DNA of 39,718 nucleotides from Escherichia phage ElsieAttenhofer_Bas105, in sequence record PQ850601.1; one strand, written 5' to 3'. The position numbers were made by a program, and so were the translations under genes. Of the stretch, positions 1 through 29,644 are shown one piece after another. The notes below the pieces were generated by a model. The model was not told where the DNA came from. It did not search any database and worked only from the letters and a program-made list of their open reading frames with translations. Positions within the stretch are counted from its first letter, which is position 1, and each line of letters opens with the position of its first letter.

Positions 1-195
1 ATGATTGAGTTAGACTTCAAGAATGAGGCCCTTAAAGCCTCTCCTATCGTCGGGACCGCTGCGGCTGATGGTGCCAGTCGGTTCTTCTTCGGACTTACAC
101 TGAACGAATGGTTCTACGTTGCAGCTATAGCGTACACCGTTGTCCAGATTGGTGTGCTAGTCTACAAAACGATTAAAGGAGGTGGTAAAACATGA
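1..195 (+). CDS. Class II holin (T7 gene 17.5 homolog)
   Basis: 64-aa ORF with hydrophobic helices; core FFGLTLNEWFYVAAIAYTVVQIG closely matches remembered T7 gp17.5; GGAGG at 39709-39713 would serve as RBS if the sequence is circular. Confidence 0.85.
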   Translation: MIELDFKNEALKASPIVGTAAADGASRFFFGLTLNEWFYVAAIAYTVVQIGVLVYKTIKGGGKT

Positions 196-455
196 CGCAG
201 ATGGACTTAGAGAAGTTCCTCTTGATGCTAGATACTGAACGTGCTCGACTCATGCTGCAAGACCTGCGGGACGATTCTAAGCGTTCGCCTCAGCTTTACA
301 ACGCCATTGAGAAGCTGCTGGCTCGTCACAACTTTGTGTTAAGCAAGGTGTCTGTGGACGAGAAGACGCTGGCTGATATGGAGGCCCTGAACGCAGAGTA
401 CGATAAGGTGCTCTCCGCTACGGAAGATAATGACACTGGATATGGAGTACAGTAA
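192..455 (+). CDS. Terminase small subunit / DNA maturation protein A (T7 gene 18 homolog)
   Basis: 87-aa ORF; motif LxMLDT...RSPQLYNAIxKLLxRH matches remembered T7 gp18; ATGA overlap with holin stop; position between holin and Rz. Confidence 0.85.
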   Translation: MTQMDLEKFLLMLDTERARLMLQDLRDDSKRSPQLYNAIEKLLARHNFVLSKVSVDEKTLADMEALNAEYDKVLSATEDNDTGYGVQ

Positions 456-459
456 GCGT

Positions 460-512
460 TAGACTCAAGGTCATTACTATATGTAGTGGCCTTTATGGTT
501 AACACTAACTAG
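460..512 (+). promoter_or_regulatory. RNase III-type processing stem-loop (R18.5-like), copy 1 of a conserved element
   Basis: Stem AAGGTCATTAC (467-477) / GTAGTGGCCTT (483-493) with loop TATAT and two G-U pairs; conserved flanks TAGACTCAAGG and TTATGGTTAAC; same element recurs at 9843-9896 and 16779-16825 with compensatory changes. Confidence 0.5.
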
Positions 513-556
513 TGGAGGAGACTCTACGTGAAATCTGATAAACCGGGAGGGCAGCT

Positions 557-1009
557 ATGCTCGAATTTTTAAAGAGAGCGGCTCCGTGGTTACTTGCAGC
601 AGTGATGTTTGCTGGTGGCTACCACACCGCTAACAATAAGTGGGAGGCTAAGGTCAATGAAGAATACACCTCGAACCTTAAGGCATCGGAGGATACAAGG
701 CTTGCTGTCCAAGCTGAAGTCAACAAAGTGTCCAAACGGTTTCAGGACGAAATGTCCTCGCTGGAAGGTAGCACTGATAGGATTATTGCTGACCTTCAGT
801 CTGACAATAAGCGGTTGCGCATCCGAGTCAAACCAACGAGTGGAACCACGCAAAGTGACGGTCGATGCGTCATTGATGGTTACGCCGAACTTGACGAACG
901 AGATGCTAAACGTCTTATCTCCATCGGACTGAAAGGGGACGCTTGGATTAAAGCACTACAGGATACTATTCGCGAACTTAAACAAGACAAGGAGAAAGAC
1001 AATGGGTAA
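557..1009 (+). CDS. Rz-like i-spanin (T7 gene 18.5 homolog)
   Basis: 150-aa ORF; N-terminal TM segment then charged coiled-coil; start MLEFLKR and C-terminal DRDAKRL...KGDAWIKALQDTIRELK match remembered T7 gp18.5. Confidence 0.85.
   Translation: MLEFLKRAAPWLLAAVMFAGGYHTANNKWEAKVNEEYTSNLKASEDTRLAVQAEVNKVSKRFQDEMSSLEGSTDRIIADLQSDNKRLRIRVKPTSGTTQSDGRCVIDGYAELDERDAKRLISIGLKGDAWIKALQDTIRELKQDKEKDNG
657..932 (+). CDS. Rz1-like o-spanin lipoprotein embedded in +1 frame of the i-spanin gene (start uncertain)
   Basis: Alternate-frame ORF inside gene 18.5 encodes hydrophobic stretch KVALIGLLLTFSLTISGC with lipobox ISGC; in-frame ATG at 657 has GGGAGG 9 nt upstream; TTG at 702 (GGAGGA upstream) is an alternative start. 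Confidence 0.5.
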   Translation: MKNTPRTLRHRRIQGLLSKLKSTKCPNGFRTKCPRWKVALIGLLLTFSLTISGCASESNQRVEPRKVTVDASLMVTPNLTNEMLNVLSPSD

Positions 1010-1424
1010 TATTATTACTTTGAAAACTGACGTAGTTTGGCATTTTGCTACTGGCGCACCATCTGGACTGAAGAACGCATCCGGTCACTTGTTATCTGGT
1101 ACAATATATGTGAAGGTCCCAGCTAAAGAGGGACTCAGTGGTGTAAACTTCGTCGTTCGGTTCGCTGGTGAGTTCCCTACAGCCTCAGCTCATAAGTGGC
1201 GAGTGCAGCTTCGTAGACCCGATAACACTACCCTATCTTCCGTGACAGACACAGATGACCAGCAGTCATTCACCATTCGTGAGGCAGCCATCCATAGCTA
1301 CATAGCTAATACAGACGACCCGTTCGTTACTACTGGCATCACGCTTGGCATTGCAGTTACCGGGTCTGAGGACCTTACTCTGTCCTCCCTGACTGTTCGC
1401 GTTGACCGAATCTTTAACTCTTAA
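1002..1424 (+). CDS. Hypothetical protein, accessory ORF between spanins and large terminase (no T7 counterpart)
   Basis: 140-aa ORF with AAGGAG 11 nt upstream; overlaps gene 18.5 stop; same strand; no recognisable motif. Confidence 0.5.
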   Translation: MGNIITLKTDVVWHFATGAPSGLKNASGHLLSGTIYVKVPAKEGLSGVNFVVRFAGEFPTASAHKWRVQLRRPDNTTLSSVTDTDDQQSFTIREAAIHSYIANTDDPFVTTGITLGIAVTGSEDLTLSSLTVRVDRIFNS

Positions 1425-1436
1425 GAGGGGGAAGTA

Positions 1437-1607
1437 ATGATTAGAGTTAAATGCTTAAAGTCGGACTCAAATGGGATTCTTGAGGTGGGTTCAGTCTACT
1501 GGGTGGACTCGCTTGAAGACATTGACTCCTATGTGCATATTAGAGGAGGGCGATACATTGGTATGTTCCCCTCTAAGTGGTTTGAACCTAAGGAGGTGAA
1601 GCATTGA
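1437..1607 (+). CDS. Small hypothetical protein (56 aa)
   Basis: Own translation [56 protein letters not shown]; strong RBS AAGAGGGGGAAG upstream; stop overlaps the terminase start. Confidence 0.3.
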
Positions 1608-3367
1608 GTAAAGACTTAGTGGCGCGTCAGGCGCTAATGACTGCACGTATGAAGGCAGACTTCGTGTTCTTCCTGTTCGTCCTGTGGAAAGCTCTGTCAC
1701 TCCCAGTCCCGACTCGCTGTCAGATTGACATGGCGAAGAAACTATCGGCTGGGGACAACAGGCGCTTCATCCTACAGGCGTTCCGTGGTATAGGGAAGTC
1801 CTTTATTACGTGTGCCTTCGTTGTCTGGAAGCTATGGAACAACCCAGACTTGAAGTTCATGATTGTGTCGGCCTCAAAGGAACGAGCTGATGCTAACTCC
1901 ATCTTCATCAAGCGAATCATCGACCTCATGCCTCAGCTTCAGGAACTCAAACCTAAGCAGGGACAGCGAGATGCGGTTATCAGCTTCGACGTCGGACCAG
2001 CCAAGCCAGACCACTCACCTTCGGTTAAGTCCGTTGGTATCACTGGTCAGTTGACTGGTAGTCGTGCTGACATCCTGATTGCCGATGACGTGGAGGTTCC
2101 GAACAACTCAGCGACTCAGGCTGCCCGAGACCGTCTGTCAGAGCTTGTGAAGGAGTTCGACGCTATCCTGAAGCCGGGAGGTACAATCATCTATCTGGGT
2201 ACTCCTCAGAACGAGATGACCTTGTATCGTGAGCTGGAAGGCCGTGGGTACACCACTACTATCTGGCCTGCTCGTTATCCACGCGACAGGAAGGACTGGC
2301 AGTCTTACGGAGACCGTCTGGCTCCCATGCTTCAGGCAGAGCTTGAAGAGGACCCTGAGGCCTTCTATTGGCGTCCGACCGATGAAGTTCGATTCGACGA
2401 TACTGACCTGAAGGAACGTGAGCTGTCCTACGGTAAAGCTGGCTTCGCTCTACAGTTCATGCTTAACCCGAACCTAAGTGATGCTGAGAAGTACCCTCTG
2501 AAGCTCCGTGACCTTATCGTAGCCGACTTGGACCCAGCGTCCAGCCCAATGGTCTACCAATGGTTGCCTAACCCTCAGAACAAGCGTGAGGACGTTCCTA
2601 ACGTTGGACTCATGGGTGACTCATACCACACGTATCAAACTGTAGGTTCTGCCTTCAGTTCGTACACCCAGAAGATTTTGGTCATTGACCCTAGTGGTCG
2701 TGGTAAGGATGAAACTGGCTATGCGGTACTGTACCAGCTCAACGGCTACATCTTCGCTATGGAAGTTGGTGGTATGCGTGGTGGTTATGAAGACTCTACG
2801 CTGGAAGTACTAGCTAAGATTGGTCGTAAGTGGAAGGTCAACGAATACGTCATTGAGGGTAACTTCGGTGATGGTATGTACCTTGAGCTATTCAAGCCTG
2901 TAGCGGCCCGTATCCATCCTGCGGCTGTAACTGAAGTGAAGAGTAAGGGTCAGAAAGAACTCCGAATCTGTGACGTTCTGGAGCCTATCATGGGGTCTCA
3001 CCGACTTATCGTTAACGCTGCTGCTATCGTCCAAGACTACCAGTCGGCCTCTGATAAGGATGGTGTTCGTAACCCTATCTACTCTCTCTTCTACCAGATG
3101 ACACGTATCTCTCGTGAACGTGGAGCCTTGGCACACGATGACCGACTTGACGCGCTGGCTATAGGTGTACAGTTCTTCGTTGAGTCTATGGCTAAGGATG
3201 CCAACAAGGGCGAACGTGAAGTCACTGAGGAGTGGCTGGAGGAACAGATGGAGAACCCACGGAAAGGCTTCGAGTCCATCCACACTGAGTTCTGGGACAA
3301 TGGGGTCCGGGTAACTCACGATACGGACGACGAGCTGGGACTAGGGTCATACGTTACGTTCCACTAG
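1604..3367 (+). CDS. Terminase large subunit (T7 gene 19 homolog), TTG start
   Basis: 587-aa ORF colinear with remembered T7 gp19 ([19 protein letters not shown] Walker A-like, [24 protein letters not shown] nuclease); N-terminal alignment and TAAGGAGG 7 nt upstream support the TTG start at 1604. Confidence 0.95.
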
Positions 3368-3461
3368 CTGAATGAATAATTATAGGTGAAAGCTGCATGA
3401 ATACGCGGTTAGTAACCTATAGTTACTACCAGTCTAACCTACTGTTTTACAAGGAGTTTTG

Positions 3462-3484
3462 ACTTAACTATCACTATAGGGAAG
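3462..3484 (+). promoter_or_regulatory. Phage RNAP promoter (phiOR-like, near right genome end)
   Basis: TTAACTATCACTATAGGGAAG matches the 12-copy promoter consensus; predicted +1 G at 3479. Confidence 0.7.
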
Positions 3485-3664
3485 ACCCCCGGTTACTTAT
3501 AGTATTACTGTAGTGAATATACATATGCAGACTTTATGCAAGACCTTAGGAGGCAGACTCCGAGTTCTTACCTAAGGCTTGCACCGATGGAAGGAGGGTG
3601 ATATTAATCATAATCCCTCCAATACAGATAGTCACCGACCATAGATACAGGAGGTATGTAGCAT

Positions 3665-3823
3665 ATGGCAAAGACCAAAGCTGTACTTAAAGCTCTGGCG
3701 ACCAATCGAGCTACATACAGGTTTCTTGCTGCTGTTCTACTTGCTGCTGGCGTTACTGCTGGAAGTCAGTGGGTCGGGTGGGTCGAGACTCTCGTATGTT
3801 CTCTGGTCTCTCAGTGTAATTAA
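3665..3823 (+). CDS. Small hydrophobic ORF (52 aa), possible gene 19.5-like
   Basis: ATG with GGAGG 10 nt upstream, downstream of the phiOR-like promoter; translation MAKTKAVLKALATNRATYRFLAAVLLAAGVTAGSQWVGWVETLVCSLVSQCN; position only. Confidence 0.25.
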   Translation: MAKTKAVLKALATNRATYRFLAAVLLAAGVTAGSQWVGWVETLVCSLVSQCN

Positions 3824-3982
3824 CGCAATCATGGTAACAATCAACGAAAGTAAGACCTAAGGTCAGTTCATAGCTGACGCTACTCTACTGACCTTAGCTA
3901 CTGTAGTCAAGGACTTTAGGTAACACCTTAAGAGAAACTCACTTAGGGTCATCCTACTTATTGGTCTATCCTAGTGTCGCCT

Positions 3983-4022
3983 GACCTACGGTCCTTGACC
4001 TACAGTGGCTGTGACCTACAGT
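3983..4022. repeat. Three direct copies of TGACCTACRGT in the genome-end region
   Basis: TGACCTACGGT at 3983-3993, TGACCTACAGT at 3996-4006 and 4012-4022; related CTACCTACAGT copies near 4285-4318. Confidence 0.6.
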
Positions 4023-4108
4023 AGTGACGATGAGTTTTGGACCAAAAGTTTGAGACCACATCTCACAGTTCAAGAACCTCAAGTCTCCCCATAGGCCCTC
4101 TTTTAGTC

Positions 4109-4250
4109 CAGACCAATAGTCCCTACCCATAGACCTTTGGTCTACACCTCTAGTCTATCATAAGGTTGGACCGGTTGTCAAGACTTCAGGTCAACTATAG
4201 GTCTAGGCTATGGCTGGAGGTTGGGACGATAGGTAGGGACTATTGGTCTG
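4109..4250. repeat. Perfect 19-bp inverted repeat pair flanking a 104-bp spacer
   Basis: CAGACCAATAGTCCCTACC at 4109-4127; exact reverse complement GGTAGGGACTATTGGTCTG at 4232-4250. Confidence 0.7.
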
Positions 4251-4375
4251 CCTCTGAGTCCCTATCTGTATCAGACCATAAGTCACTACCGAGCTACCTA
4301 CAGTCTAACTACCTACAGTCATCGACCATCGGTAATGCCGCTACCTACTGTATAAATTACCATGATAAACAGTTG

Positions 4376-4404
4376 TTGACAGTAGGTCTAACTTTGGTTT
4401 AATA
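4376..4404 (+). promoter_or_regulatory. Candidate sigma70 early promoter (A1-like)
   Basis: TTGACA at 4376-4381, 17-bp spacer, weak -10 TTAATA/TTTAAT around 4398-4404; first of three TTGACA elements upstream of ocr. Confidence 0.35.
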
Positions 4405-4514
4405 GCTTCCGTCAACACGACACGGCAACAACCGGATAGTGAAGACGCCGGGTCATCCCGGTTAAGTAGACAGCCTGATAAGTCATACGAACAACAGGCA
4501 GATGACAGAAGTAG

Positions 4515-4543
4515 TTGACAAGATGTAAGACTTAAAGTAGTAT
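4515..4543 (+). promoter_or_regulatory. Candidate sigma70 early promoter (A2-like)
   Basis: TTGACA 4515-4520, 17-bp spacer, -10 TAGTAT 4538-4543. Confidence 0.5.
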
Positions 4544-4669
4544 GATTCACCAAGTAGTACAGCGAGCCGGAACTGATAAACTACATCGGCTATGCGGAGT
4601 GACCAGCGCGGATATCTGGTCTACTGAGTAAGACGGTAGGTTACTACAGAGAGCGAGCTAAGAAAGTGA

Positions 4670-4698
4670 TTGACAAGATGGCTTGACTGTAGTAACTT
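4670..4698 (+). promoter_or_regulatory. Candidate sigma70 early promoter (A3-like)
   Basis: TTGACA 4670-4675, 17-bp spacer, -10 TAACTT 4693-4698; shares TTGACAAGATG with the 4515 element. Confidence 0.4.
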
Positions 4699-4898
4699 AT
4701 ACGGCAAGCAAGATTAGTGAGTCCCAACACTGAAACGGGATAGCGCGGCGACGACAGCCAATGCGAATGCTCTTTAACAATCTGGATAAACTCTTAATGT
4801 GCGCCGATAGCGACTAACTACAGGGTCTTTGAGTCTACATCTGAAGGCCCTGACTGATAGTCACTAACATACACAAACAACTTTGAGAGGATATAATT

Positions 4899-5243
4899 AT
4901 GGAACGTAACGCTAACGCATACTATGAGCTGCTGGCTGCAACTGTTGAAGCATTTAACGAGCGCATTCAGTACGACGAAATAGCTGAAGGAGATGATTAT
5001 CACGATGCGCTGCATGAAGTCGTAGACGATATGGTCCCGCACTACTACCACGAGATCTTCACGGTGATGGCTGCTGATGGTATTGACCATGAGTTCGAAG
5101 ACTCTGGGCTGATGCCTGATACCAAGGACGTAACGCGTATACTACAGGCTCGCATTTATGAGGCACTGTATAACGATGTGTCTAATAGCTCTGAGGTGGT
5201 CTGGTTCGAGGCTGAAGAGAGCGACGAGGAGGCCTGCGAGTGA
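4899..5243 (+). CDS. ocr: Ocr-like DNA mimic anti-restriction protein (T7 gene 0.3 homolog)
   Basis: 114-aa highly acidic protein; [43 protein letters not shown] nearly identical to remembered T7 Ocr; first gene after the early promoters. Confidence 0.85.
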
Positions 5244-5399
5244 GGGTAACTTATGGTCTCTGCCAGCATCACGTCACCAACGCCCGGATTATGATCAAGA
5301 CCGGGCAGTTAACCCACGATGCGACTATGCGTCACCTGAAGGCGGTCTATGAGGGCCGCAAGCGTATCCACGACAGTTTGCACGCTGAGGACAAGTAAC

Positions 5400-5525
5400 A
5401 TGTACCAGATAACTTATAGCAGTGAACAGGAGTTCTACGATGGGTGCTACGAAATGATGAAGCGCGGGGCTTGCTACGTGGCGAATCACCATAGCCTGAC
5501 CATAACGCTGACAGGCGGGTACTGA
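5400..5525 (+). CDS. Small early hypothetical protein (41 aa)
   Basis: ATG with GAGGA upstream; own translation MYQITYSSEQEFYDGCYEMMKRGACYVANHHSLTITLTGGY; position of T7 genes 0.4-0.6. Confidence 0.3.
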   Translation: MYQITYSSEQEFYDGCYEMMKRGACYVANHHSLTITLTGGY

Positions 5526-5681
5526 GTGATAAACGAGAGGTCATCGACTGATAGGTGGCCTCAAAGATTACCACTTGCATTAATAGGGGTTAACTATGAG
5601 TGTGGGATATTGGGTATGCCTAGCGCCAGTTATCTGGATGATAGGATATGGGATATACGATTGTATTAAACGGAAATCACT

Positions 5682-5879
5682 ATGAGTATATTACTATTGA
5701 TAGCCATAGGCTATGGACTTATCGCCTACGTGCTGATGAGAGACCTTAACAAGGCGCGTAAAGTCTACAAATTCAACTATGTACGTCCGGGCCGCTGGAC
5801 TGTACGTCAACCTAACGGACGATTCATGCGCAACTTAGCGAACGTCTGGGATATAGCAACACTTGGGAGCAAACTGTAA
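5682..5879 (+). CDS. Small early membrane protein (65 aa)
   Basis: N-terminal hydrophobic helix ILLLIAIGYGLIAYVLM followed by basic tail; same strand, tightly packed. Confidence 0.45.
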   Translation: MSILLLIAIGYGLIAYVLMRDLNKARKVYKFNYVRPGRWTVRQPNGRFMRNLANVWDIATLGSKL

Positions 5880-6271
5880 TGACTATGTCAAATCTGGTAC
5901 ACGCAATGGACTCAATCATATCTCTTCGCACATTCACTGATAAGAACGGCGTAGAGTGGAAGTACGTCGGCACGGACTCTCGCGGTCGCAACTACTGGGA
6001 GAAGACCGGGAACAAGACCGCTTATGTGCATCGACACTCTTCACACTCCGCACGTCAACAGCAGGAGCGGTACCGGGTACTGCAAGCAAGACTCCGGGCA
6101 GAGGGCCATAAGTCGGAGCTGATGTGTCTGGCGTATGGTGGACGACCAATCACCGACGATGGTAAACTTTTGGTCTCAGGCTGGAAGGCGATAGACCAAC
6201 GGTCAACCATCAAGCACACGACTCATGGTGACTTCAGTCATCTTCACGCTAATCCACTGATATGCAAGTGA
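5879..6271 (+). CDS. Early hypothetical protein (130 aa) at the position of T7 gene 0.7
   Basis: ORF immediately upstream of gene 1, TAATG overlap with the previous ORF; no kinase motifs; unknown function. Confidence 0.5.
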   Translation: MTMSNLVHAMDSIISLRTFTDKNGVEWKYVGTDSRGRNYWEKTGNKTAYVHRHSSHSARQQQERYRVLQARLRAEGHKSELMCLAYGGRPITDDGKLLVSGWKAIDQRSTIKHTTHGDFSHLHANPLICK

Positions 6272-6276
6272 TTCAG

Positions 6277-6299
6277 ACTTAACTATCACTATAGGACTC
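6277..6299 (+). promoter_or_regulatory. Phage RNAP promoter upstream of gene 1
   Basis: TTAACTATCACTATAGGACTC; predicted +1 at 6294. Confidence 0.65.
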
Positions 6300-6368
6300 A
6301 AGGTCTAAGACTCCAAGTGAAAGATCAAAGAGACTTTAAGTGAAAGACTAATAACAAGGACTTTAAGT

Positions 6369-9050
6369 ATGAGCGTCATCTCTATTGACAAACACGACTT
6401 CTCTGATGTGTCAAACGCCATTGAGCCGTTTAACCTGCTGGCCGACCACTACGGGCAAGACCTTGCAGTCAAACAGCTTCAGCTTGAGCATGAGGCATAC
6501 ACTGAAGGCGAGCGACGTTTCATCAAGAACCTTGAGCGCCAGACCGAGCGCGGGGAACTGGCAGACAATCAGGTCGCCAAGCCTTTGATGCAGACTCTGG
6601 TTCCTAAGATTGCGCAAGCCGTCAAGGAGTGGCACGAAGGTCCAGACGGGAAGCTGTCAACCTCTCGTCCTAGCGTAGCGTTCACCATGTTGAGTACTGA
6701 AGAGAAGGCCGTCAAGGATCGCTCTCTGCGTATCTCTTGCGAGTCTGCTGCGGTCATCATACTGAAGGTCATCCTCTCCAAGCTGGTCAAGCCTGAAGGG
6801 ATACCGATTACACCGATGGCCTCCGCGATAGGTCGCACACTTGAGGATGAAATCCGATTCGGTCGCATTCGTGACAAGGAGAAGGATCACTTCAAGAAGG
6901 CGATAGCAGATAACCTGAACAAGAGAGCCGGGGCATCATACAAGAAAGCCTACATGCAAGCGGTTGAGACCTCCATGTTGGAGCAAGGTCAACTGGAAGA
7001 TGCGTGGGGGACTTGGAGTCCGACCGAGGCTGTCCACGTTGGAATCAAGATGCTTGAGATTGTCATCCAGTCTACACAACTGGTCGAGCTTAAGCGTTAC
7101 GGTGCTGGCAATGCAGCGGCTGACGTTGAGATGGTCCACCTGTCAGACTTCTGGGTCAAGAAGATGGCACAACGCGGCTTCAGCCTTGCGGGTATCGCTC
7201 CAGTCTACCAACCTTGCGTCGTTCCGCCTAAGCCGTGGACTGGTGTCGTAGGCGGTGGGTACTGGGCCAAAGGTCGCAGACCACTCCCACTGATTCGCTT
7301 AGGGTCTAAGTCAGCGGTGGCACGTTACGAAGACGTGTACATGCCTGAAGTCTATGACGCTGTGAATATCATCCAGAATACGCCTTGGAAAGTTAACAAG
7401 AAGGTTCTGGAAGTGGTGAACATGGTCGAGAAGCTGAACAACACGCCTATTGATGACATACCTCAGATGGAACCGCTGAAGCCTGAGGACTATGCGGGTG
7501 AGACTGAAGAGGAACTCAAGGCATGGAAGAAGGCTGCTGCTGGTATCTACCGCCGAGAGAAGGCCAGGCAGTCACGTAGATTGTCACTGAGCTTTATCGT
7601 TAACCAAGCGAACAAGTTCTCTCAGTTCAAGGCCATCTGGTTCCCGTACAACATGGACTGGCGCGGTCGCGTCTACGCTGTGCCGATGTTCAACCCTCAG
7701 GGTAATGACATGCAAAAGGGTCTCCTGACTCTGGCAGTAGGTAAGCCTATTGGTGCTGATGGTTTCAAATGGCTGAAGGTCCACGGTGCAAACTGTGCGG
7801 GTATTGATAAAGTAACCTTCGAGGAGCGCATCAAGTGGGTGGAAGATAACCACGACAACATCATGGCTACCGCTAAGGCACCGATGGACAGCATTGAGTG
7901 GTGGGGCAAGTTAGACTCTCCGTTCTGCTTCCTAGCGTTCTGCTTCGAGTATGCTGGCGTAATGCATCACGGATTGTCTTACTCCTGCTCGCTGCCGATA
8001 GCATTCGATGGGTCCTGCTCTGGGATTCAGCACTTTAGCGCGATGCTTCGTGATCACATCGGTGGACATGCAGTAAACCTGACGCCTTCCGGTAAGGTAC
8101 AAGACATCTACCGCATCGTGTCTGACCGCATTGAGGAAGAGCTTAAAGTCCTGCTGGTTAACGGCACGGACAACGAGATGGTAACTCACGAGGACAAGAA
8201 AACTGGTGAGATTACCGAGCGTCTCAAACTGGGGACACGAGAACTGGCCCGTCAGTGGCTGACTTACGGTATGTCACGTAAGGTCACTAAGCGTTCAGTC
8301 ATGACTCTGGCCTACGGGTCGAAAGAGTACGGCTTCGCAGACCAAGTATACGAGGACATCGTGATGCCTGCGATTGACTCAGGGTCTGGCGCTATGTTCA
8401 CCGAACCAAGCCAAGCGTCCCGCTTCATGGCTAAGATGATTTGGGAAGCTGTGAGCGTGACCGTAGTTGCTGCGGTTGACGCGATGAAGTGGCTTCAAGG
8501 TGCTGCCAAGCTGCTGGCTGCTGAAGTGAAAGACAAGAAGACTGGAGAAATCCTGAAGCCTTGCCTTCCAGTACACTGGGTAACACCTGATGGGTTCCCG
8601 GTCTGGCAGGAATACCGCAAGAAGGATACCACTCGTCTGAACCTGATGTTCTTAGGGTCATTCAACCTTCAGCCTACCGTCAACAAAGGCACTAAGAAAG
8701 AGCTGGATAAGCACAAGCAGGAGTCAGGCATTAGCCCGAACTTCGTCCACTCACAAGATGGTAGCCACCTCCGCAAGACTGTAGTCCACACTCACCGCAA
8801 GTATGGCGTAATGTCATTCGCAGTGATTCACGATAGCTTCGGGACCATCCCGGCTGACGCTGAGTATCTGTTCCGTGGTGTCCGTGAGACGATGGTCGAG
8901 ACCTACCGCGACAACGATGTGCTGCTGGACTTCTACGAGCAGTTTGAATACCAGCTTCATGAGAGCCAGCGCGATAAGTTGCCAGAGCTTCCGAAGAAAG
9001 GTAAACTGAATATCGAAGACATCTTGTCTTCAGACTTTGCATTCGCTTAA
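6369..9050 (+). CDS. Single-subunit DNA-directed RNA polymerase (T7 gene 1 homolog)
   Basis: 893-aa ORF colinear with remembered T7 RNAP (FNPQGNDMxKGLLTLA, motif C VIHDSFGT, C-terminal SDFAFA); specificity-loop region reads GSFNLQPTVNKGTKKELDKHKQ. Confidence 0.97.
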   Translation: MSVISIDKHDFSDVSNAIEPFNLLADHYGQDLAVKQLQLEHEAYTEGERRFIKNLERQTERGELADNQVAKPLMQTLVPKIAQAVKEWHEGPDGKLSTSRPSVAFTMLSTEEKAVKDRSLRISCESAAVIILKVILSKLVKPEGIPITPMASAIGRTLEDEIRFGRIRDKEKDHFKKAIADNLNKRAGASYKKAYMQAVETSMLEQGQLEDAWGTWSPTEAVHVGIKMLEIVIQSTQLVELKRYGAGNAAADVEMVHLSDFWVKKMAQRGFSLAGIAPVYQPCVVPPKPWTGVVGGGYWAKGRRPLPLIRLGSKSAVARYEDVYMPEVYDAVNIIQNTPWKVNKKVLEVVNMVEKLNNTPIDDIPQMEPLKPEDYAGETEEELKAWKKAAAGIYRREKARQSRRLSLSFIVNQANKFSQFKAIWFPYNMDWRGRVYAVPMFNPQGNDMQKGLLTLAVGKPIGADGFKWLKVHGANCAGIDKVTFEERIKWVEDNHDNIMATAKAPMDSIEWWGKLDSPFCFLAFCFEYAGVMHHGLSYSCSLPIAFDGSCSGIQHFSAMLRDHIGGHAVNLTPSGKVQDIYRIVSDRIEEELKVLLVNGTDNEMVTHEDKKTGEITERLKLGTRELARQWLTYGMSRKVTKRSVMTLAYGSKEYGFADQVYEDIVMPAIDSGSGAMFTEPSQASRFMAKMIWEAVSVTVVAAVDAMKWLQGAAKLLAAEVKDKKTGEILKPCLPVHWVTPDGFPVWQEYRKKDTTRLNLMFLGSFNLQPTVNKGTKKELDKHKQESGISPNFVHSQDGSHLRKTVVHTHRKYGVMSFAVIHDSFGTIPADAEYLFRGVRETMVETYRDNDVLLDFYEQFEYQLHESQRDKLPELPKKGKLNIEDILSSDFAFA

Positions 9051-9062
9051 CAGGAGATAGTT

Positions 9063-9278
9063 ATGAAATTTGCACACAAGCAGACAGGCGTTAAGGGTGG
9101 GACTCAAATCGTGACCGTAACAGAACACAACGGCAAGGGTCTGGTGAAGACCACTATCATCCCAACTGAGATGTCCAAGCAGCTTAACATCCCGTTCAAG
9201 ACTCTTGTATATCTGGTCGAGTCCAGCCACGAGAAGTACCTGAAGGACGCAGTGTCCAAGCTGGAGCAGACAAAATGA
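9063..9278 (+). CDS. Hypothetical protein (71 aa)
   Basis: ORF with RBS AGGAGA upstream, directly after gene 1; no recognised motif. Confidence 0.45.
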   Translation: MKFAHKQTGVKGGTQIVTVTEHNGKGLVKTTIIPTEMSKQLNIPFKTLVYLVESSHEKYLKDAVSKLEQTK

Positions 9279-9356
9279 CAGACCTACAGTTACTGGCCCT
9301 GTGGCTTGGAGCACTCGCAATATTCACTTTAATCCAACGCAGAAGAGGTTAACCAT

Positions 9357-9827
9357 ATGTTCGGTAAGTCAAAACTTAAAGCACAAATCAAAGAGTTGAG
9401 CATGAAGGTGGCATACTTGGAGCGAGCCTTAACGGTACGGGATAAGGACAACGAGAGACTGAAGGTTAAACTTGCTGAATCAGAGCGTAAGCGCCTAACG
9501 CCTCCACCGGCTGTAACTGTCAAGCGTATGGTAGGCATCAAGTTCAAGGCACTGTTCAACGGTATGTACCAACCGACTGAGTTCAAGACCGGGCCGGGTA
9601 GCTGTGGGAAGAACGTTAAGCACTTCACCGTATCGAAGACTGAACGTACCATTACCATCCACCAGCACCACGTAGACGGGTCTCAGAAAGACTTTGAGTA
9701 CAGACTGAGCGCCATAGACGGACGCATCCAGTATGACTACGAGCGGGTTAAGGTCTACGGAGAAGAGGCCGAACGTGAGCGATATATTCAGGCATTCATG
9801 CGGGTAAGGCCGCGCATCATCTTCTAA
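9357..9827 (+). CDS. Hypothetical protein (156 aa) with N-terminal coiled-coil
   Basis: ORF between gene 1 and the phi1.1-like promoter; N-terminal heptad-rich charged segment; function unknown. Confidence 0.5.
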   Translation: MFGKSKLKAQIKELSMKVAYLERALTVRDKDNERLKVKLAESERKRLTPPPAVTVKRMVGIKFKALFNGMYQPTEFKTGPGSCGKNVKHFTVSKTERTITIHQHHVDGSQKDFEYRLSAIDGRIQYDYERVKVYGEEAERERYIQAFMRVRPRIIF

Positions 9828-9845
9828 ACTATCACTATAGGATTA
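9823..9845 (+). promoter_or_regulatory. Phage RNAP promoter (phi1.1-like)
   Basis: CTAAACTATCACTATAGGATT; predicted +1 at 9840. Confidence 0.7.
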
Positions 9846-9896
9846 GACTCAAGGTCATGACTCAAAGTCGTGGCCTTCATGATTAACCCTAACTCA
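9843..9896 (+). promoter_or_regulatory. RNase III-type processing stem-loop (R1.1-like), copy 2
   Basis: Stem AGGTCATGAC (9852-9861) / GTCGTGGCCT (9867-9876), loop TCAAA, two G-U pairs; conserved flanks as in copy 1. Confidence 0.5.
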
Positions 9897-9915
9897 TTCA
9901 ATCAGGAGCTACACC

Positions 9916-10095
9916 ATGTATCAGAACACTATCAACTTCGAGCGCATCAGTGAACGTCAGCAGACTGAAGGTTACATTCCTAAGGGCCGCAAGCTGAACA
10001 AGACCAAGCGTGGCGGTGGTGTCAAAGGCGCTTTCCGTAATGCTGAAGGTAAAGACTCTATGGTCAACCAAGAGAAATACTTCGTAGGAGTGTAA
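9916..10095 (+). CDS. Small basic protein (T7 gene 1.1 homolog)
   Basis: 59-aa ORF not in the supplied track; motif KGRKLNKTKR matches remembered T7 gp1.1; RBS AGGAGC upstream. Confidence 0.6.
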   Translation: MYQNTINFERISERQQTEGYIPKGRKLNKTKRGGGVKGAFRNAEGKDSMVNQEKYFVGV

Positions 10096-10098
10096 GTC

Positions 10099-10350
10099 AT
10101 GAGTAAACGATGGTTATTCGACGCATCCCCTAGCCAGTGGTCAGTGTTAGGCCGAACTCACCGCGAGATGAGTGAGGCAGGACTTGATGTCCTAATGGAT
10201 GACTCGCCGTGCTCCGGAAAAACTCTGGTCAGAGTAATTGAAGCAGACGGTGGGAGGCTTCTGGTCTCAAGAGAATTTACCGAAGATGAAATCTTTAGCT
10301 GTGAGCAATGGTGCTTACAACAATTGAACGCTTATAGGAGCTGGAAATAA
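10099..10350 (+). CDS. Gene 1.2-like protein (dGTPase inhibitor family, by position and C-terminal similarity)
   Basis: 83 aa versus 85 aa in T7; C-terminus EQWCLQQLNAYRSWK resembles remembered T7 gp1.2 TDWLNHMYDQLKDWK. Confidence 0.55.
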   Translation: MSKRWLFDASPSQWSVLGRTHREMSEAGLDVLMDDSPCSGKTLVRVIEADGGRLLVSREFTEDEIFSCEQWCLQQLNAYRSWK

Positions 10351-11465
10351 TGACAACTATTAAAACTAACCCGCACCGCGCTGTAGATTACTCTGAGTCT
10401 GGCATTAAGAAAGCACTGGCTGCTGCCGGGTCTCTCGAAGCTGAAGTGAAGTATGATGGTGTCCGGTTGAACCTCCCAGTCTTCCCGACAGGCGAGACCC
10501 AGTGGTTGAGCCGAGAGTCCAAGCCTCTTCCAGCCCTTGAATGGCTATCGGTCCTGACCAGCCTCGATAATATCGTGGAAGACCAGCAGCGCGCTAGCGA
10601 CTGGCGGTGGTTCCTGAAGCAAGCTGGCTATGAGGGGACTGGCCTGATGATTGATGGTGAGGTCATGGTGAAAGGGGTAGACTTCAACACGTCTTCGGGC
10701 CTCATTCGCACGAAGTATGTCAAGTCTAAAAACTGCGCCCTCCACGATGGTGATTGGGACCTCAAGTCCAAGACTACTCAGTTCCGGCTGGACCGAGACC
10801 GTATCAAGGTGGTAGTCTATGGCATCATCGACCTTAACGTCATCCTCGACCCGAAAGCCGAAGGTCCTATCCATAGCGTCACACGCCTGAAGGCCGAAGC
10901 TATCGTCCCTCTACTCCAGAAATACTTCCCGGAAATCGACTGGGTTCTGTCTGAGTCACACACGGTCTATGACCTTGAGTCGCTCAACTCCCTGTACGAA
11001 GAGAAGCGTCTGGAAGGACACGAGGGTCTGGTAGTCAAGGACCCACTTGGCAAATACAAGCGCGGAAAGAAGTCAGGCATGTGGAAAATGAAGCCTGAGG
11101 ATACCATTGATGGTATTGTGGTCGGACTGAATTGGGGGAATGAAGGTCTCGCAAACGAAGGTAAAGTGATTGGGTTCGACGTACTGCTTGAGAACGGTAT
11201 GGTAGTTGCTGCTAACAATATCTCTCAGGCTCTGATGGATGAGTTCACAGAAGCGGTTAAAGCTGAACGCGCCTATATTTGGAATGACTGCATGACTGAT
11301 ATTGAGCGGGAAGAATGTGGTGAGGAATGTCTTGAGGATGTGAACCCCTACAAAGGACATCAATGCGAAGTCTCCTACATGGAGATGACTCCGGATGGTT
11401 CCTTACGTCACCCTAGCTTCAAGTGCTGGCGCGGGACGGAAGATAACCCGACCATTAAGAGCTAA
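10350..11465 (+). CDS. ATP-dependent DNA ligase (T7 gene 1.3 homolog)
   Basis: 371 aa; adenylation motif KYDGVR; extended similarity to remembered T7 ligase (EGHEGLVVKDP, KRGKKSGMWKMKPE, DGSLRHPSF). Confidence 0.93.
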   Translation: MTTIKTNPHRAVDYSESGIKKALAAAGSLEAEVKYDGVRLNLPVFPTGETQWLSRESKPLPALEWLSVLTSLDNIVEDQQRASDWRWFLKQAGYEGTGLMIDGEVMVKGVDFNTSSGLIRTKYVKSKNCALHDGDWDLKSKTTQFRLDRDRIKVVVYGIIDLNVILDPKAEGPIHSVTRLKAEAIVPLLQKYFPEIDWVLSESHTVYDLESLNSLYEEKRLEGHEGLVVKDPLGKYKRGKKSGMWKMKPEDTIDGIVVGLNWGNEGLANEGKVIGFDVLLENGMVVAANNISQALMDEFTEAVKAERAYIWNDCMTDIEREECGEECLEDVNPYKGHQCEVSYMEMTPDGSLRHPSFKCWRGTEDNPTIKS

Positions 11466-11474
11466 CTAAATGTC

Positions 11475-11508
11475 AACCCAGTGGTCTTAGGACTTCTGGG
11501 TTTCTTTG
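11475..11508 (+). terminator. Candidate early terminator (TE-like) after the ligase gene
   Basis: Hairpin CCCAGTGGTC-TTAG-GACTTCTGGG followed by TTTCTTTG; T7 TE lies in the same position. Confidence 0.4.
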
Positions 11509-11529
11509 CGTCTGGGCCACCAGCTAGAC

Positions 11530-11552
11530 CCTAAGCTATCACTATAGGACTA
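11530..11552 (+). promoter_or_regulatory. Phage RNAP promoter
   Basis: CCTAAGCTATCACTATAGGACTA; one mismatch to consensus; +1 at 11547. Confidence 0.6.
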
Positions 11553-11575
11553 CAACCAACAACCAAGGAGACTCT

Positions 11576-11836
11576 ATGTCTAAGAATTTAATGTTCAACC
11601 GTTATTCCAATACCTTCCACCTGTCCAACAACCCGTTCGCTTGCACTAAGCGCAACGAGAAGCTGGGCTACTTCGGGAAGGTAGTTAAGCTGGCACCTAC
11701 AGTCTACGCTCTGATTACTCCGGGCAAAGCTGAAGAGGCTCGCCAGAAGCGTGAGACCAATGTACCCGTGGTCTACACCAAGTGGCCCCGCGTTCGTCTG
11801 TTCGTTGAGTTCGTCAAGGAGGTGGTAAATGGCTAA
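11576..11836 (+). CDS. Hypothetical protein (86 aa), gene 1.5/1.6 position
   Basis: ORF with RBS AAGGAGA upstream; no recognised motif. Confidence 0.45.
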   Translation: MSKNLMFNRYSNTFHLSNNPFACTKRNEKLGYFGKVVKLAPTVYALITPGKAEEARQKRETNVPVVYTKWPRVRLFVEFVKEVVNG

Positions 11837-12164
11837 GCACGAGGAGTGGTGCCGCTCGGTCAATAGCTTCGGTTCGTGCGACTGCGGTGCTGTTACCAGC
11901 ATCATCGCCGCGTGTAGTAAAGATGACGGGGTTCGCAAGCCATCTCACTATCAGGTCTTTGACGGCGTGGAATCCATTGAGATTATCGCACGGTCAATGA
12001 CTGTGAGTGAGTTCCGTGGGTTCTGCATGGGTAACGTCCTGAAGTATCGACTCCGGGCTGGTAAGAAGTCCGAGCTGGCTACTATGGAGAAGGACCTGAA
12101 CAAAGCAGCCTTCTATCAGGAGCTGTTCGACCTGCATAAAGGTAAGTGCTATGCTGCCAAGTGA
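11829..12164 (+). CDS. DUF3310-like small protein at the gene 1.7 position
   Basis: 111 aa; motifs PSHYQ, ESIEII, GNVLKYRLRAGKK recalled as typical of the phage DUF3310 family (from memory, unverified). Confidence 0.45.
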   Translation: MAKHEEWCRSVNSFGSCDCGAVTSIIAACSKDDGVRKPSHYQVFDGVESIEIIARSMTVSEFRGFCMGNVLKYRLRAGKKSELATMEKDLNKAAFYQELFDLHKGKCYAAK

Positions 12165-12242
12165 GTGGTGCCGGGAGATGTATGAGAAGACTCTCAACCC
12201 GGACTACATTACGTTATACAACCAATGGAAGGAGCGCGGTTT

Positions 12243-12401
12243 ATGACTAAGGTTGAGAAGAAATACATCGTGGAGCTTGAGGGTCGCGTTCAGTCCTTCG
12301 AGGTTCCGGTATACGCAAAGTCTCTTGAAGAGGCTACCCTGAAGTCCCAAGAGTATGAGGATGCAGGGTTTGTGGTCGGACGGATTCGTCCTGAGACCTA
12401 A
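12243..12401 (+). CDS. Host RNA polymerase inhibitor (T7 gene 2 homolog)
   Basis: 52-aa ORF not in the supplied track; [52 protein letters not shown] shares SFEVP(I/V)YA...L(D/E)EA...AGF(E/V)V.R(I/V)RP with remembered T7 gp2. Confidence 0.7.
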
Positions 12402-12419
12402 ACTATCACTGTAGGACAG
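12397..12419 (+). promoter_or_regulatory. Phage RNAP promoter (phi2.5-like, variant)
   Basis: CTAAACTATCACTGTAGGACAG; one substitution in the TATA element; +1 at 12414. Confidence 0.55.
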
Positions 12420-12458
12420 ACGTCCAGTTCGTAACTTTAAATTAGGAGATTTACACCG

Positions 12459-13157
12459 ATGGCTAAAGAGCAACTGAAGACTTTCACCACTCCGGTAGCT
12501 GGTATCGTTGAGCCTTACGCATGGCTGAACAAAGCAGACACCAAGTTTAATGAGCGTGGTGAGCATAAGGTTAACCTGACTTTCAGTCTGGATGACCCGA
12601 AGGTCCGTAAGATGATTGATGTCTTACAGAAGATTCACGACGATGCGTATGCGAAAGCACTCGCAGACCACGAGAAGAACCCACCTCAGGTTCAGCGTGG
12701 CAAGAAGCCTATCGAGCCGCGTGAAGGCGATATGCCGTGGATTGAGAATGGGGACGGTACTGTTACCCTGAAGTTTAAATGCTTTGCGTCTTACCTTAAA
12801 GACGGCAAGTCCGAGCCTATCGTATTACGGTTCTACGACACCGATGCTAAACTCATCCGTGACGTCCCGAATATTGGCGCTGGGTCTAAGCTGAAGGTCA
12901 AGTTTAAAGTCCTGCCGTTCAAGTGGAACGCTGCGACTGGTGCAAGCGTTAAGCTCCAGCTTGAGTCCTGCCTTCTGGTAGAACTGAAGGAGTGGAAAGG
13001 TGATGGTTCTGGTGGCGATGGTGGATGGGGTGACGATGAAGACCTCGGCACTGGCTACAAAGCGTCAACCGATGGTGACTTCGGGTCTGATGACTTCGGT
13101 GACGATGGTTCCGAGGGTGGTGACGACTCCGGCTCTGGTGGCGATTACGACTTCTAA
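12459..13157 (+). CDS. Single-stranded DNA-binding protein (T7 gene 2.5 homolog)
   Basis: 232 aa; NPPxVxRGKKP, EGDMP, GSKLKVK, ASVKLQLES match remembered T7 gp2.5; acidic Gly/Asp-rich tail ending in DF. Confidence 0.93.
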   Translation: MAKEQLKTFTTPVAGIVEPYAWLNKADTKFNERGEHKVNLTFSLDDPKVRKMIDVLQKIHDDAYAKALADHEKNPPQVQRGKKPIEPREGDMPWIENGDGTVTLKFKCFASYLKDGKSEPIVLRFYDTDAKLIRDVPNIGAGSKLKVKFKVLPFKWNAATGASVKLQLESCLLVELKEWKGDGSGGDGGWGDDEDLGTGYKASTDGDFGSDDFGDDGSEGGDDSGSGGDYDF

Positions 13158-13612
13158 TGGTCCAATGGTCTGCAAAACGGGGGCACTCTGTGGGTGCCTA
13201 CCGCTCTGGACTTGAAGCCAAGAACCAGCAGTGGCTGGAACAGAACGGCGTCAAAGCGGAGTACGAAAGCCATTATATCAACTATGTGATTCCGGCTTCC
13301 GACCACAAGTACACACCAGACTTTATCCTTCCAAACGGTATCATCGTGGAGACTAAAGGTATCTTCGACAGTGATGACCGTAAGAAGCACCTTCTGGTAC
13401 GAGAACAGCACCCAGAGTTAGACATCCGGTTCGTGTTCTCAAGTTCCCGCTCCAAGTTATACAAAGGGTCTCCGACCACGTATGGCGCATGGTGCGAAAA
13501 GAACGGCTATAAGTATGCCGATAAGTTCATCCCGGTTGAGTGGCTGCGAGAGGCGACTGTACGTCTGCCCTCAGGTATACTCATTCCCAAGAAGAAAGGA
13601 GTTAAGAAATGA
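13157..13612 (+). CDS. Endonuclease I, Holliday junction resolvase (T7 gene 3 homolog)
   Basis: 151 aa; YVIPAS, YTPDF, PNGIIVETKG, DSDDRKKHLLVREQHPELDIRFVFSSSRSKLYKGSPTTYG match remembered T7 gp3. Confidence 0.93.
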   Translation: MVQWSAKRGHSVGAYRSGLEAKNQQWLEQNGVKAEYESHYINYVIPASDHKYTPDFILPNGIIVETKGIFDSDDRKKHLLVREQHPELDIRFVFSSSRSKLYKGSPTTYGAWCEKNGYKYADKFIPVEWLREATVRLPSGILIPKKKGVKK

Positions 13613-14100
13613 GCAAGAAGTTTAAACTGTTAAAAGATGTGTTTGGCTGGCCTCGTGGGACTATCGTTACCGAGTGTGAGAAAGACCCCGCACCAACGTC
13701 AGGAATGACCCTAGTTGAGTGCCAGACTCCAGGAGAATACAAACATGGGTCTAAAGGCCACAATACTCAGCCTGAGGGTATGTGGGGAGCATGGGTCGTT
13801 GATTACAAACTTCAGGAAATCAAGCCGGAAGAGAAACTCACTGGTGTACAGACCACTCAAGTCCTGCCAGCTTCTAGCGTACCACCTGTGACTGTGAAGC
13901 GTGAAGTCCTGACCATCGACAAGATTGGTGTAGGCCAGACGTTCATCGTCCACGGTAAACCTGAGGAAGTGTACGTTAAGATTAGTAACTCACACGTCTT
14001 CAACCATAAGCGCCTCCAGATGCACACCACGGATGCACAGCGCTTCACCCAGCACCTGAATCTGGTGGTCGTAGAATTGGTGGTGTACAATGGTAAGTAA
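13609..14100 (+). CDS. Hypothetical protein (163 aa) inserted between endonuclease I and lysozyme
   Basis: ORF with AAAGGAG RBS, ATGA overlap with gene 3 stop; T7 has no gene here; no recognised motif. Confidence 0.55.
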   Translation: MSKKFKLLKDVFGWPRGTIVTECEKDPAPTSGMTLVECQTPGEYKHGSKGHNTQPEGMWGAWVVDYKLQEIKPEEKLTGVQTTQVLPASSVPPVTVKREVLTIDKIGVGQTFIVHGKPEEVYVKISNSHVFNHKRLQMHTTDAQRFTQHLNLVVVELVVYNGK

Positions 14101-14548: not shown

Positions 14549-14571
14549 TAAACTCCAAAGGAGAACACTAA

Positions 14572-14787: not shown

Positions 14788-14805
14788 ACTATCACCTTAG
14801 GGATG
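14783..14805 (+). promoter_or_regulatory. Candidate phage RNAP promoter upstream of gene 4 (divergent variant)
   Basis: CTAAACTATCACCTTAGGGATG; two mismatches in the -4/-2 region; +1 at 14800. Confidence 0.4.
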
Positions 14806-14852
14806 GGACCACGAGTCCTGTCCCTTTGTTCGCATTTGTGATTAAGGAGTGA

Positions 14853-16598
<1,746 letters not shown>

Positions 16599-16599
<1 letters not shown>

Positions 16600-16763
16600 T
16601 GTTAAATAAACTTAAAGCTCGATACCATCGGTTCATGTACAAATGGTGGAGCGATGAAGCAACCTACCTGTCGAACATTCTGGGAGACCAGCGGTTCAAC
16701 TCTGAGGCATGGAAGAAAGCTAACCGGAAGTTCATATATCACTTCTTGCGTACAGACTACTAA
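16599..16763 (+). CDS. Small hypothetical protein (54 aa, GTG start)
   Basis: GTG with GGAGG 8 nt upstream; translation VLNKLKARYHRFMYKWWSDEATYLSNILGDQRFNSEAWKKANRKFIYHFLRTDY; lies between gene 4 and the next promoter. Confidence 0.35.
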
Positions 16764-16781
16764 GCTATCACTGTAGGATAG
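16759..16781 (+). promoter_or_regulatory. Phage RNAP promoter (variant)
   Basis: ACTAAGCTATCACTGTAGGATAG; +1 at 16776. Confidence 0.5.
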
Positions 16782-16825
16782 ACTCAAGGTCATTCATTTC
16801 GAGTGGCCTTTATGATTAGACTATA
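16779..16825 (+). promoter_or_regulatory. RNase III-type processing stem-loop, copy 3
   Basis: Stem AAGGTCATTC (16786-16795) / GAGTGGCCTT (16801-16810), loop ATTTC; conserved flank TAGACTCAAGG. Confidence 0.5.
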
Positions 16826-16834
16826 GGAGACATT

Positions 16835-25029: not shown

Positions 25030-25052
25030 ACTAAACTATCACTATAGGGAGA
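25030..25052 (+). promoter_or_regulatory. Phage RNAP promoter (phi10-like, strongest consensus match)
   Basis: ACTAAACTATCACTATAGGGAGA; +1 at 25047; shares CACTATAGGGAGA with the T7 class III promoters. Confidence 0.85.
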
Positions 25053-29575: not shown

Positions 29576-29625
29576 AAGGGCCTATAGATTTACCTTAACT
29601 ATCACTATAGGGACTATAGGCCCTT
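29576..29625 (+). promoter_or_regulatory. 12-bp perfect inverted repeat enclosing the phi13-like promoter (candidate R13-type RNase III site)
   Basis: AAGGGCCTATAG (29576-29587) and its reverse complement CTATAGGCCCTT (29614-29625) flank the promoter core. Confidence 0.45.
29593..29615 (+). promoter_or_regulatory. Phage RNAP promoter (phi13-like)
   Basis: CCTTAACTATCACTATAGGGACT; +1 at 29610. Confidence 0.75.
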
Positions 29626-29644
29626 AAGGTTATAAGGAGACTTT

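Follow-up and report, generated by a model that had tools for sequence, protein, structure and literature searches.

Three short elements in the genome of Escherichia phage ElsieAttenhofer_Bas105 (PQ850601.1) share a flanking sequence and a hairpin, raising the question of whether they mark the places where host RNase III processes the phage mRNAs, as an earlier note had proposed. The window, i.e., the whole stretch of 39,718 nt that was analyzed, is a Kayfunavirus (K1F-like) coliphage genome in circularly permuted form. The elements at 460-512, 9843-9896, and 16779-16825 (copies 1, 2, and 3) are homologues of the textbook T7/T3 mRNA-processing signals and are unannotated in this genome. Together with two further loci at 5521-5585 and 4805-4875, they very probably belong to the T7/T3 "R-site" family of signals for mRNA processing by host RNase III. 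Support for this reading came from homology to a T7 model, gene order, covariation, and the recognition boxes, and cleavage is predicted by homology.

Megablast with the first 12 kb matched Escherichia, Salmonella, and "Kayfunavirus" phages with 91-94% identity, and tblastn of the ORFs against T7 recovered the T7 gene order, circularly permuted (Table 1). Twelve phage promoters with the core CTATCACTATAGG(A/G) were identified on the + strand. Copy 1 was located between the gene 18 stop codon and the start of gene 18.5; copy 2 followed gene 1 and two small ORFs and preceded the ORF in the gene 1.1 position, gene 1.2, and the ligase gene; and copy 3 followed genes 4/4.2 and a small ORF and preceded an HNH endonuclease gene and gene 5. 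Gene order, as established by tblastn against T7 and by PHROGs matches, therefore agreed with the positions R18.5, R1.1, and R4.7 that had been assigned to them, except that the gene directly after copy 3 encoded an HNH endonuclease related to T7 gp7.7 and was not gene 4.7. All three copies were intergenic, on the transcribed strand, and at conserved T7-like map positions. Copies 2 and 3 began 4-5 nt past the inferred +1 of phage promoters: the transcript from the promoter at 9823..9845 starts inside the lower stem of copy 2, and bases -5 to +1 of the promoter at 16759..16781 are the outer 5' strand of the copy 3 lower stem.

Table 1. RNase III-type sites, promoters, and neighboring genes in the window (↓ in sequences, the scissile bond, predicted for the window sites; R1 and R2 in the score column, covariance models)
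Feature	Coordinates	Strand	Model matches and scores	Parts	Predicted cleavage	Basis or remark
Copy 1, R18.5-type site	455..506	+	R1 451-516, 50.3 bits; R2 64.8 bits	lower stem 455-462/499-506; internal loop 463-466 (ACUC)/494-498 (UAUGG); upper stem 467-477/483-493, AAGGUCAUUAC/GUAGUGGCCUU, 11 bp; loop 478-482 (UAUAU)	single, between U496 and G497	scores, flanking genes; upper stem read from sequence
Copy 2, R1.1-type site	9839..9890	+	R1 9835-9900, 44.6 bits; R2 63.9 bits	lower stem 9839-9846/9883-9890; internal loop 9847-9850/9878-9882 (CAUGA); upper stem 9851-9861/9867-9877, AAGGUCAUGAC/GUCGUGGCCUU, 11 bp; loop 9862-9866 (UCAAA)	between U9880 and G9881	scores, flanking genes; upper stem read from sequence
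Copy 3, R4.7-type site	16771..16826	+	R1 16770-16832, 36.7 bits; R2 49.3 bits	outer lower stem CUGUAG 16771-16776/CUAUAG 16821-16826; inner lower stem UAG 16779-16781/UUA 16816-16818, separated from the outer one by tandem G·A; internal loop 16782-16785/16811-16815; upper stem 16786-16795/16801-16810, AAGGUCAUUC/GAGUGGCCUU, 10 bp; loop 16796-16800 (AUUUC)	between U16813 and G16814	scores, flanking genes; upper stem read from sequence
R0.5-type site	5525..5575	+	R1 5521-5585, 37.3 bits; R2 51.2 bits	lower stem 5525-5532/5568-5575; upper stem 5537-5545/5554-5562; 8-nt loop	between A5565 and G5566	scores; early region
R0.3-type site, more diverged	4809..4865	+	R1 4805-4875, 23.1 bits, E 0.0019; R2 36.1 bits	lower stem 4809-4816/4858-4865; upper stem 4821-4829/4844-4852; 14-nt loop	between U4855 and G4856	scores; z -3.5
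Next R1 match			16 bits			opposite strand of copy 3; best opposite-strand score
R3.8-type site, different architecture	14800..14826	+				3' flank CCCTTT↓GTTCGCATT identical to T7 R3.8
R13-type site, by architecture	29577..29626	+		perfect 12-bp stem 29577-29588/29615-29626
Phage promoter before copy 2	9823..9845	+				core CTATCACTATAGGA, inferred +1 G9840
Phage promoter abutting copy 3	16759..16781	+				CTATCACTGTAGGA, inferred +1 G16776
Gene 17.5	1-195					tblastn vs T7
Gene 18	192-455 (stop codon 453-455)					tblastn vs T7
Gene 18.5	557-1009					tblastn vs T7
Gene 19	1604-3367					tblastn vs T7
Gene 0.3, early region	4899-5243					tblastn vs T7
Gene 1, RNA polymerase	6369-9050					tblastn vs T7
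Gene 1.1-position ORF	start 9916
Gene 1.2 (dGTPase inhibitor)	start 10099					PHROGs scan
Ligase gene	10350-11465					tblastn vs T7
Gene 4	14856-16556					tblastn vs T7
HNH endonuclease gene, T7 gp7.7-related	16835-17236					tblastn vs T7, PHROGs scan
Gene 5 (DNA polymerase)	17227-19395					tblastn vs T7

Common to the three elements were TAGACTCAAGGTCA, a hairpin of 10-11 bp that includes two G·U pairs, and the sequence GGCCTT(T/C)ATG. The 14-mer TAGACTCAAGGTCA had exactly three perfect matches in the window, at 460, 9844, and 16779, all on the + strand, and the pattern AAGGYC-N10-22-GGYCTTNRT was seen three times compared to 0.01 expected from shuffles, which together exclude chance. The stem lengths, two conserved G·U pairs (U·G at stem positions 5 and 8 in every copy), and 5-nt loop described previously were confirmed, with copy 3 being one pair shorter than copies 1 and 2 and the ViennaRNA fold of copy 2 adding a U-A pair that gives 12 bp and a 3-nt loop. 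Folds of short segments reached -17.1, -16.1, and -12.7 kcal/mol for copies 1, 2, and 3, respectively, and the elements folded better than nearly all shuffles (z -3.4, -3.5, and -2.9). The claim that three upper-stem positions differ between the copies while pairing is preserved held for two of them, pair 9 (U-A/G-C/U-A) and pair 10 (A-U/A-U/C-G), but not for the third, because the copy 3 triplet "TTC/GAG" had been read one position out of register and includes a conserved U·G.

Near-matches to TAGACTCAAGGTCA with at most three mismatches numbered 30 compared to ~5 expected, above every one of 400 random genomic 14-mers. A larger hidden family behind these near-matches was rejected, as the extra matches were dispersed over both strands, largely within coding sequence, and the excess reflected the very common CTGAAGG/GACTGAAG-type words of the genome. 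CTGAAG/CTTCAG was the commonest hexamer in the window, with 101 occurrences on both strands versus ~19 expected from base composition, and was likewise the top hexamer in K1F (89 occurrences). Its abundance in the window was largely explained by sub-words and is likely codon-driven (Markov expectation 84). In T7, it occurred once versus 21 expected from a Markov model, a near-absence resembling site avoidance. CTGAAG is the recognition site of Eco57I/AcuI.

Folds with longer flanks extended the elements beyond the upper hairpin of the earlier note, which stood but proved to be part of a larger structure. Pairing between the 5' TAG(ACUC) and 3' UUA... sequences gave a lower stem of 8 bp, separated from the upper stem by a conserved internal loop (5' ACUC, 3' (U/C)AUGR), such that the upper and lower stems stacked across this asymmetric loop amount to about two helical turns of dsRNA. 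The minimum free energy folds of copies 1 and 2 contained both stems, and the outer lower stem of copy 3 was one position out of register with the family and interrupted by a tandem G·A. Stable G+C-containing hairpins between genes, one of them after gene 18, might also be terminators or pause sites for the host or phage RNA polymerase that divide transcription units, but this reading is almost certainly wrong. The stems were followed by UAUGGUUAAC, CAUGAUUAAC, or UAUGAUUAGA without a U-run, and a terminator-like scan of 1-20000 flagged none of the three elements; identity as terminators, i.e., a G+C-rich hairpin followed by a U-run, was therefore rejected. In addition, a terminator at copies 2 and 3, which directly follow promoters, would cut short every transcript, intrinsic termination makes no use of the conserved lower stem and internal loop, and the T3 homologues are annotated as RNase III sites apart from the terminators TE and Tphi.

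Membership in the RNase III site family was assessed with a covariance model (model R1) built from seven T7 sites only (R0.3, R0.5, R1, R1.1, R1.3, R4.7, and R18.5), in which the structure comprised the upper stem only and with which the window was scanned with filters off. The training segments were chosen with ten T7 cleavage coordinates attributed to Dunn and Studier (1983). The T7 records NC_001604 and V01146 list promoters but not RNase III sites. All ten coordinates fell at a common ...TTTAT↓ motif, and seven of the ten carried ACTCAAGGTC...GTGGCCTTTAT↓GAT, the same motif as in the window. Model R1 placed the three copies within its top four window matches (E-values 4.5e-11 to 2.9e-7; bit scores in Table 1). 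When applied to T3 (AJ318471), it recovered eight of ten stem-loops annotated by the depositors as "RNase III recognition site" at 30.1-58.4 bits, a validation that makes up only indirectly for the use of T7 coordinates that the T7 records do not list, and gave nothing else above 14.2 bits; the two missed sites, R3.8 and R13, have a promoter-overlapping design. The scores of the three copies lay inside the range of the annotated T3 sites, and as the model was trained on T7 only and validated on T3, the window elements are identified as family members by a test that did not use them. A second covariance model that included both helices (model R2) separated exactly five window sites (36-65 bits) from noise (at most 15 bits). 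The family of three in the earlier note was thus enlarged to five canonical members by the loci at 5521-5585 and 4805-4875. An Rfam scan of the whole window, at gathering thresholds and with E up to 1, gave no match to any family, including any that might stand for the T7 R sites.

Conservation of the two helices was analyzed in relatives. A pattern scan of IMG/VR returned 120 loci, and model R1 identified 87 elements (80 distinct) in 99 of those loci together with the window. In the 80 distinct sequences, which are phylogenetically related and were aligned by fitting them to the upper-stem model, the upper stem was 97.6% paired with double changes in 8 of 10 pairs, its six basal pairs having been fixed by the fetch pattern. 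The 8-bp lower stem (alignment columns 5-12 with 75-82), which is outside the model R1 structure and unconstrained by the fetch pattern, was 90.2% paired with double changes in all eight pairs, compared to 22-58% overall pairing in controls shifted in register by 1-3 columns. Across both helices, 16 of 18 pairs had double, compensatory changes. A register-free duplex-energy test of the lower stem gave a mean z of -1.0, and the window copies taken singly were not significant (-0.7, +0.5, and -0.65); the decisive evidence for this helix was the pair count in the alignment. The internal loop was almost invariant among the 80 relatives, with 5' A-C-U-C and 3' (U/C)-A-U-G-A.

The long identical stretches common to the copies, two of which abut promoters, would also suit dispersed repeats at the DNA level such as promoter cassettes or part of an origin near phi1.1, without a selected RNA function; the T3 primary origin is annotated near the gene 1-1.1 promoters, and the 4805-4875 site resembles a recombinant of two K1F sites. 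This explanation is highly improbable, as the compensatory changes keep pairing in both helices, G·U cells far outnumbered A·C cells over the 18 pairs (226 versus 30), and the opposite strand scored poorly (16 bits compared to 36.7 bits for copy 3). The excess of G·U over A·C indicates that the selected structure is + strand RNA. Strand asymmetry and covariation thus point to selection on RNA of the coding strand and not on DNA, and a role in recombination could coexist with the RNA function but not replace it.

The determinants of RNase III recognition were compared with those of R1.1-derived substrates, for which the E. coli enzyme requires 11 bp of helix from cut site to loop, a proximal box of G-C, A-U/U-A, and A-U with a fourth position other than G-C (U·C in R1.1), and a distal box of U-A/U·G (Pertzev and Nicholson, PMC1540722). 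With our inferred mapping of the boxes onto the sequence, copies 1 and 3 had all recognition-box positions. Copy 2 had the proximal box, with C·C at position 4 as in T7 R4.7, and a distal box of G-C/U·G, the G-C being unlike the T7 sites; distal-box substitutions at this position weaken binding in the minimal substrate (PMC1540722). E. coli RNase III cuts a single bond of R1.1 (PMC4858673), and internal loops limit cleavage to one strand and leave a protective 3' hairpin (PMC1540722).

The hairpins might instead be RNA elements that are not cleaved, acting as stabilizers of 3' ends or 5' leaders or as binding-only RNase III sites that regulate stability or translation of the neighboring genes. 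Uncoupled, binding-only RNase III sites are known, and cleavage can be suppressed by G-C at proximal-box position 4 or by a bulge-helix-bulge motif (PMC1540722). Such a role would be compatible with the non-canonical distal-box pair of copy 2 and with the location of copies 2 and 3, which form the very beginning of transcripts initiated at the promoters, a place where a hairpin can by itself stabilize mRNA. It is nevertheless very unlikely. Position 4 carries the G-C antideterminant in none of the copies, with C·U in copies 1 and 3 and C·C in copy 2, the mismatches found in T7 R1.1 and R4.7, respectively. Copy 3 has the same 10-bp stem as R1.1, and the sequence around the scissile bond is nearly invariant in the 80 relatives, as expected of a cleavage site and not of a generic hairpin.

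In the preferred reading as RNase III processing sites, cleavage, its exact position, and its physiological effects are predictions from sequence homology. The + strand transcripts would fold into the 8-bp lower stem, the asymmetric internal loop, and the 10-11 bp upper stem that carries both boxes, and RNase III would cleave a single phosphodiester in the 3' strand of the internal loop (...CCUU(U/C)AU↓G...), by homology with T7 R1.1, i.e., after 496, 9880, and 16813. The upstream mRNAs (gene 17.5-18, gene 1, and the gene 4 cluster) would then end in a protective 3' hairpin, and the downstream mRNAs (18.5-19, 1.1-1.3, and HNH-gene 5) would gain a defined 5'-monophosphate end. From transcripts initiated at 9840 and 16776, 5'-triphosphate leader hairpins of ~40 nt would be released (41 nt, 9840-9880, and 38 nt, 16776-16813), such that promoter-initiated and processed read-through transcripts would share the same 5' end. 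A literature search found no experimental work or transcript mapping for this phage or any Kayfunavirus. T7 is able to grow on RNase III-deficient hosts (PMC6938266), suggesting that the fitness role of the sites may be modest.

Among the early-region ORFs queried by tblastn against T7 (5240-6271), none matched the gene 0.7 protein kinase, and the PHROGs matches of the scanned ORFs between gene 0.3 and gene 1 were to families of unknown function only. The T7 gene 0.7 kinase phosphorylates and stimulates RNase III (PMC4858673), so that stimulation of the enzyme would differ from T7 if the kinase were truly absent.

The T7 sites R1.1, R0.5, R4.7, and R18.5 were reportedly described by Dunn and Studier in 1983, and R1.1 RNA is the model substrate of the Nicholson laboratory. 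The genomic positions matched T7, with copy 1 past gene 18, copy 2 past gene 1, and copy 3 ahead of gene 5. The T7 and window sites had the same core ACUCAAGGUC...GUGGCCUU(U/C)AU↓GAU, the same arrangement of upper stem, asymmetric internal loop, and lower stem, and the same recognition boxes. In the helix that joins cut site and loop, copy 1 and R1.1 were identical up to bp 10, and the copy 1 ...CCTTTAT↓GG... motif was also present at R18.5 of both T7 and T3. Loops differed, with 5 nt in the window copies compared to a GCAA tetraloop in T7 R1.1. The order of promoter then site in T7 phi1.1A/R1.1 was retained in the window, whereas T7 R4.7 is upstream of promoter phi4.7 and the R4.7-type site of the window is downstream of its promoter, with T7 gene 4.7 replaced by the HNH gene. 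The arrangement with the transcript start inside the site has also been noted for phi3.8/R3.8 and phi6.5/R6.5 (PMC6938266). In T3, R1.1 starts inside promoter phi1.1 according to the AJ318471 annotation, as for copy 2, R4.7 is directly before gene 5, as in K1F, and the stems differ from those of the window at covarying positions.

Copies 1 and 2 were identical to K1F (NC_007456) 36444-36509 and 5564-5629, respectively, and differences between copy 3 and K1F 12851-12914 were confined to the loop and the outer part of the lower stem. The extended lower stem was CUGUAG/CUAUAG in the window and CUUCUAG/CUAAAG in K1F, and the change of the outer 3' strand from CTATAG to CTAAAG kept pairing in both. 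The K1F orthologue of the R0.5-type site (1764-1828) had C-G in place of U·G and G·U in place of A-U, one-sided changes that also kept pairing. K1F was without a promoter before its R4.7-type site, with 12 nt of the promoter core missing (16759-16850 in the window versus 12780-12935), and its HNH gene is annotated inside gene 5, compared to between the site and the DNA polymerase gene in the window. Upstream of gene 0.3, K1F had two sites and the window a single chimeric one. The K1F sites were syntenic with those of the window, and none is annotated in the K1F record.

Besides the five canonical sites, the window contained two with promoter-overlapping designs, compared to ten sites in T3. 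The R0.5-type site preceded a 29-aa ORF (5596-5685), and the R0.3-type site was just upstream of gene 0.3. The promoter at 14789 starts its transcript with the bases that form the hairpin at 14800-14826, the same layout as T3 R3.8. The stem at 29577-29626, shortly before the gene 13 region, had the phi13 promoter within its loop and can be likened by architecture to T3 R13, which like T3 R6.5 is annotated with a promoter inside the stem-loop; given this location of the promoter, only read-through transcripts could form the stem. Counterparts of T7 sites R1, R1.3, and R6.5 were not found in the window in scans with models R1 and R2: no R1.3-type site preceded the ligase gene, and the fold of the phi6.5 region was unconvincing (z -0.55). 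Ahead of gene 1, only a half-motif at 6294-6307 was detected (11.9 bits with model R1, absent with model R2) and no R1-type site. The 29-codon ORF at 5596-5685 encodes a hydrophobic peptide (MSVGYWVCLAPVIWMIGYGIYDCIKRKSL) with no PHROG match and would be missed at usual ORF-calling thresholds. It carries a Shine-Dalgarno-like AGGGG and overlaps the next ORF by ATGA.

The 4805-4875 locus matched one K1F site on its 5' side and another in its 3' flank (K1F 685-800 and 1005-1120), with the switch within or at the end of a common 20-nt stretch CCTGACTGATAGTCACTAAC, and resembles a deletion, or an insertion in K1F, by recombination between two RNase III sites. A speculative and rather unlikely extension of the processing role is that RNase III hairpins, often fused to promoters, also serve as recombination joints at the DNA level that shuffle gene modules among K1F-like phages. 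This chimera fits the idea, as do the presence or absence of the promoter core right at the 5' boundary of the R4.7-type site with the 3' strand of the lower stem changed in step, and the HNH endonuclease gene that directly follows this site. Were the idea correct, promoters and processing signals would evolve together as a unit, and read-through and promoter-initiated transcripts would be processed differently.

The main value of the analysis is annotation. RNA-processing sites are absent from the records of this phage group, the K1F reference among them, and the T7-derived model can add five canonical and two promoter-overlapping sites to the genome. The same model could annotate hundreds of related Escherichia, Klebsiella, Salmonella, and Yersinia phages, and the predicted mRNA ends would be useful for engineering therapeutic-candidate phages and modeling their gene expression. 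The T7 processing scheme is conserved in Kayfunavirus, and no new biological question is opened.

A consensus promoter CTATCACTATAGGA with +1 at ~6294 was directly upstream of the RNA polymerase gene (region 6283-6368), by which the polymerase could transcribe its own gene, and was also conserved in K1F at 2484. It was followed by the half-copy of the R-site 5' motif (GGACTCAAGGTC) without a matching 3' arm and then by the short direct repeats AAGTGAAAGA and GACTTTAAGT. The leader of the gene 10 promoter contained a hairpin at 25047-25090 (GGGAGACC...GGTTTCCC) resembling the T7 phi10 leader, with a tandem duplication of AGAGACAGACTCA (two copies) in its loop, where the K1F sequence differs.
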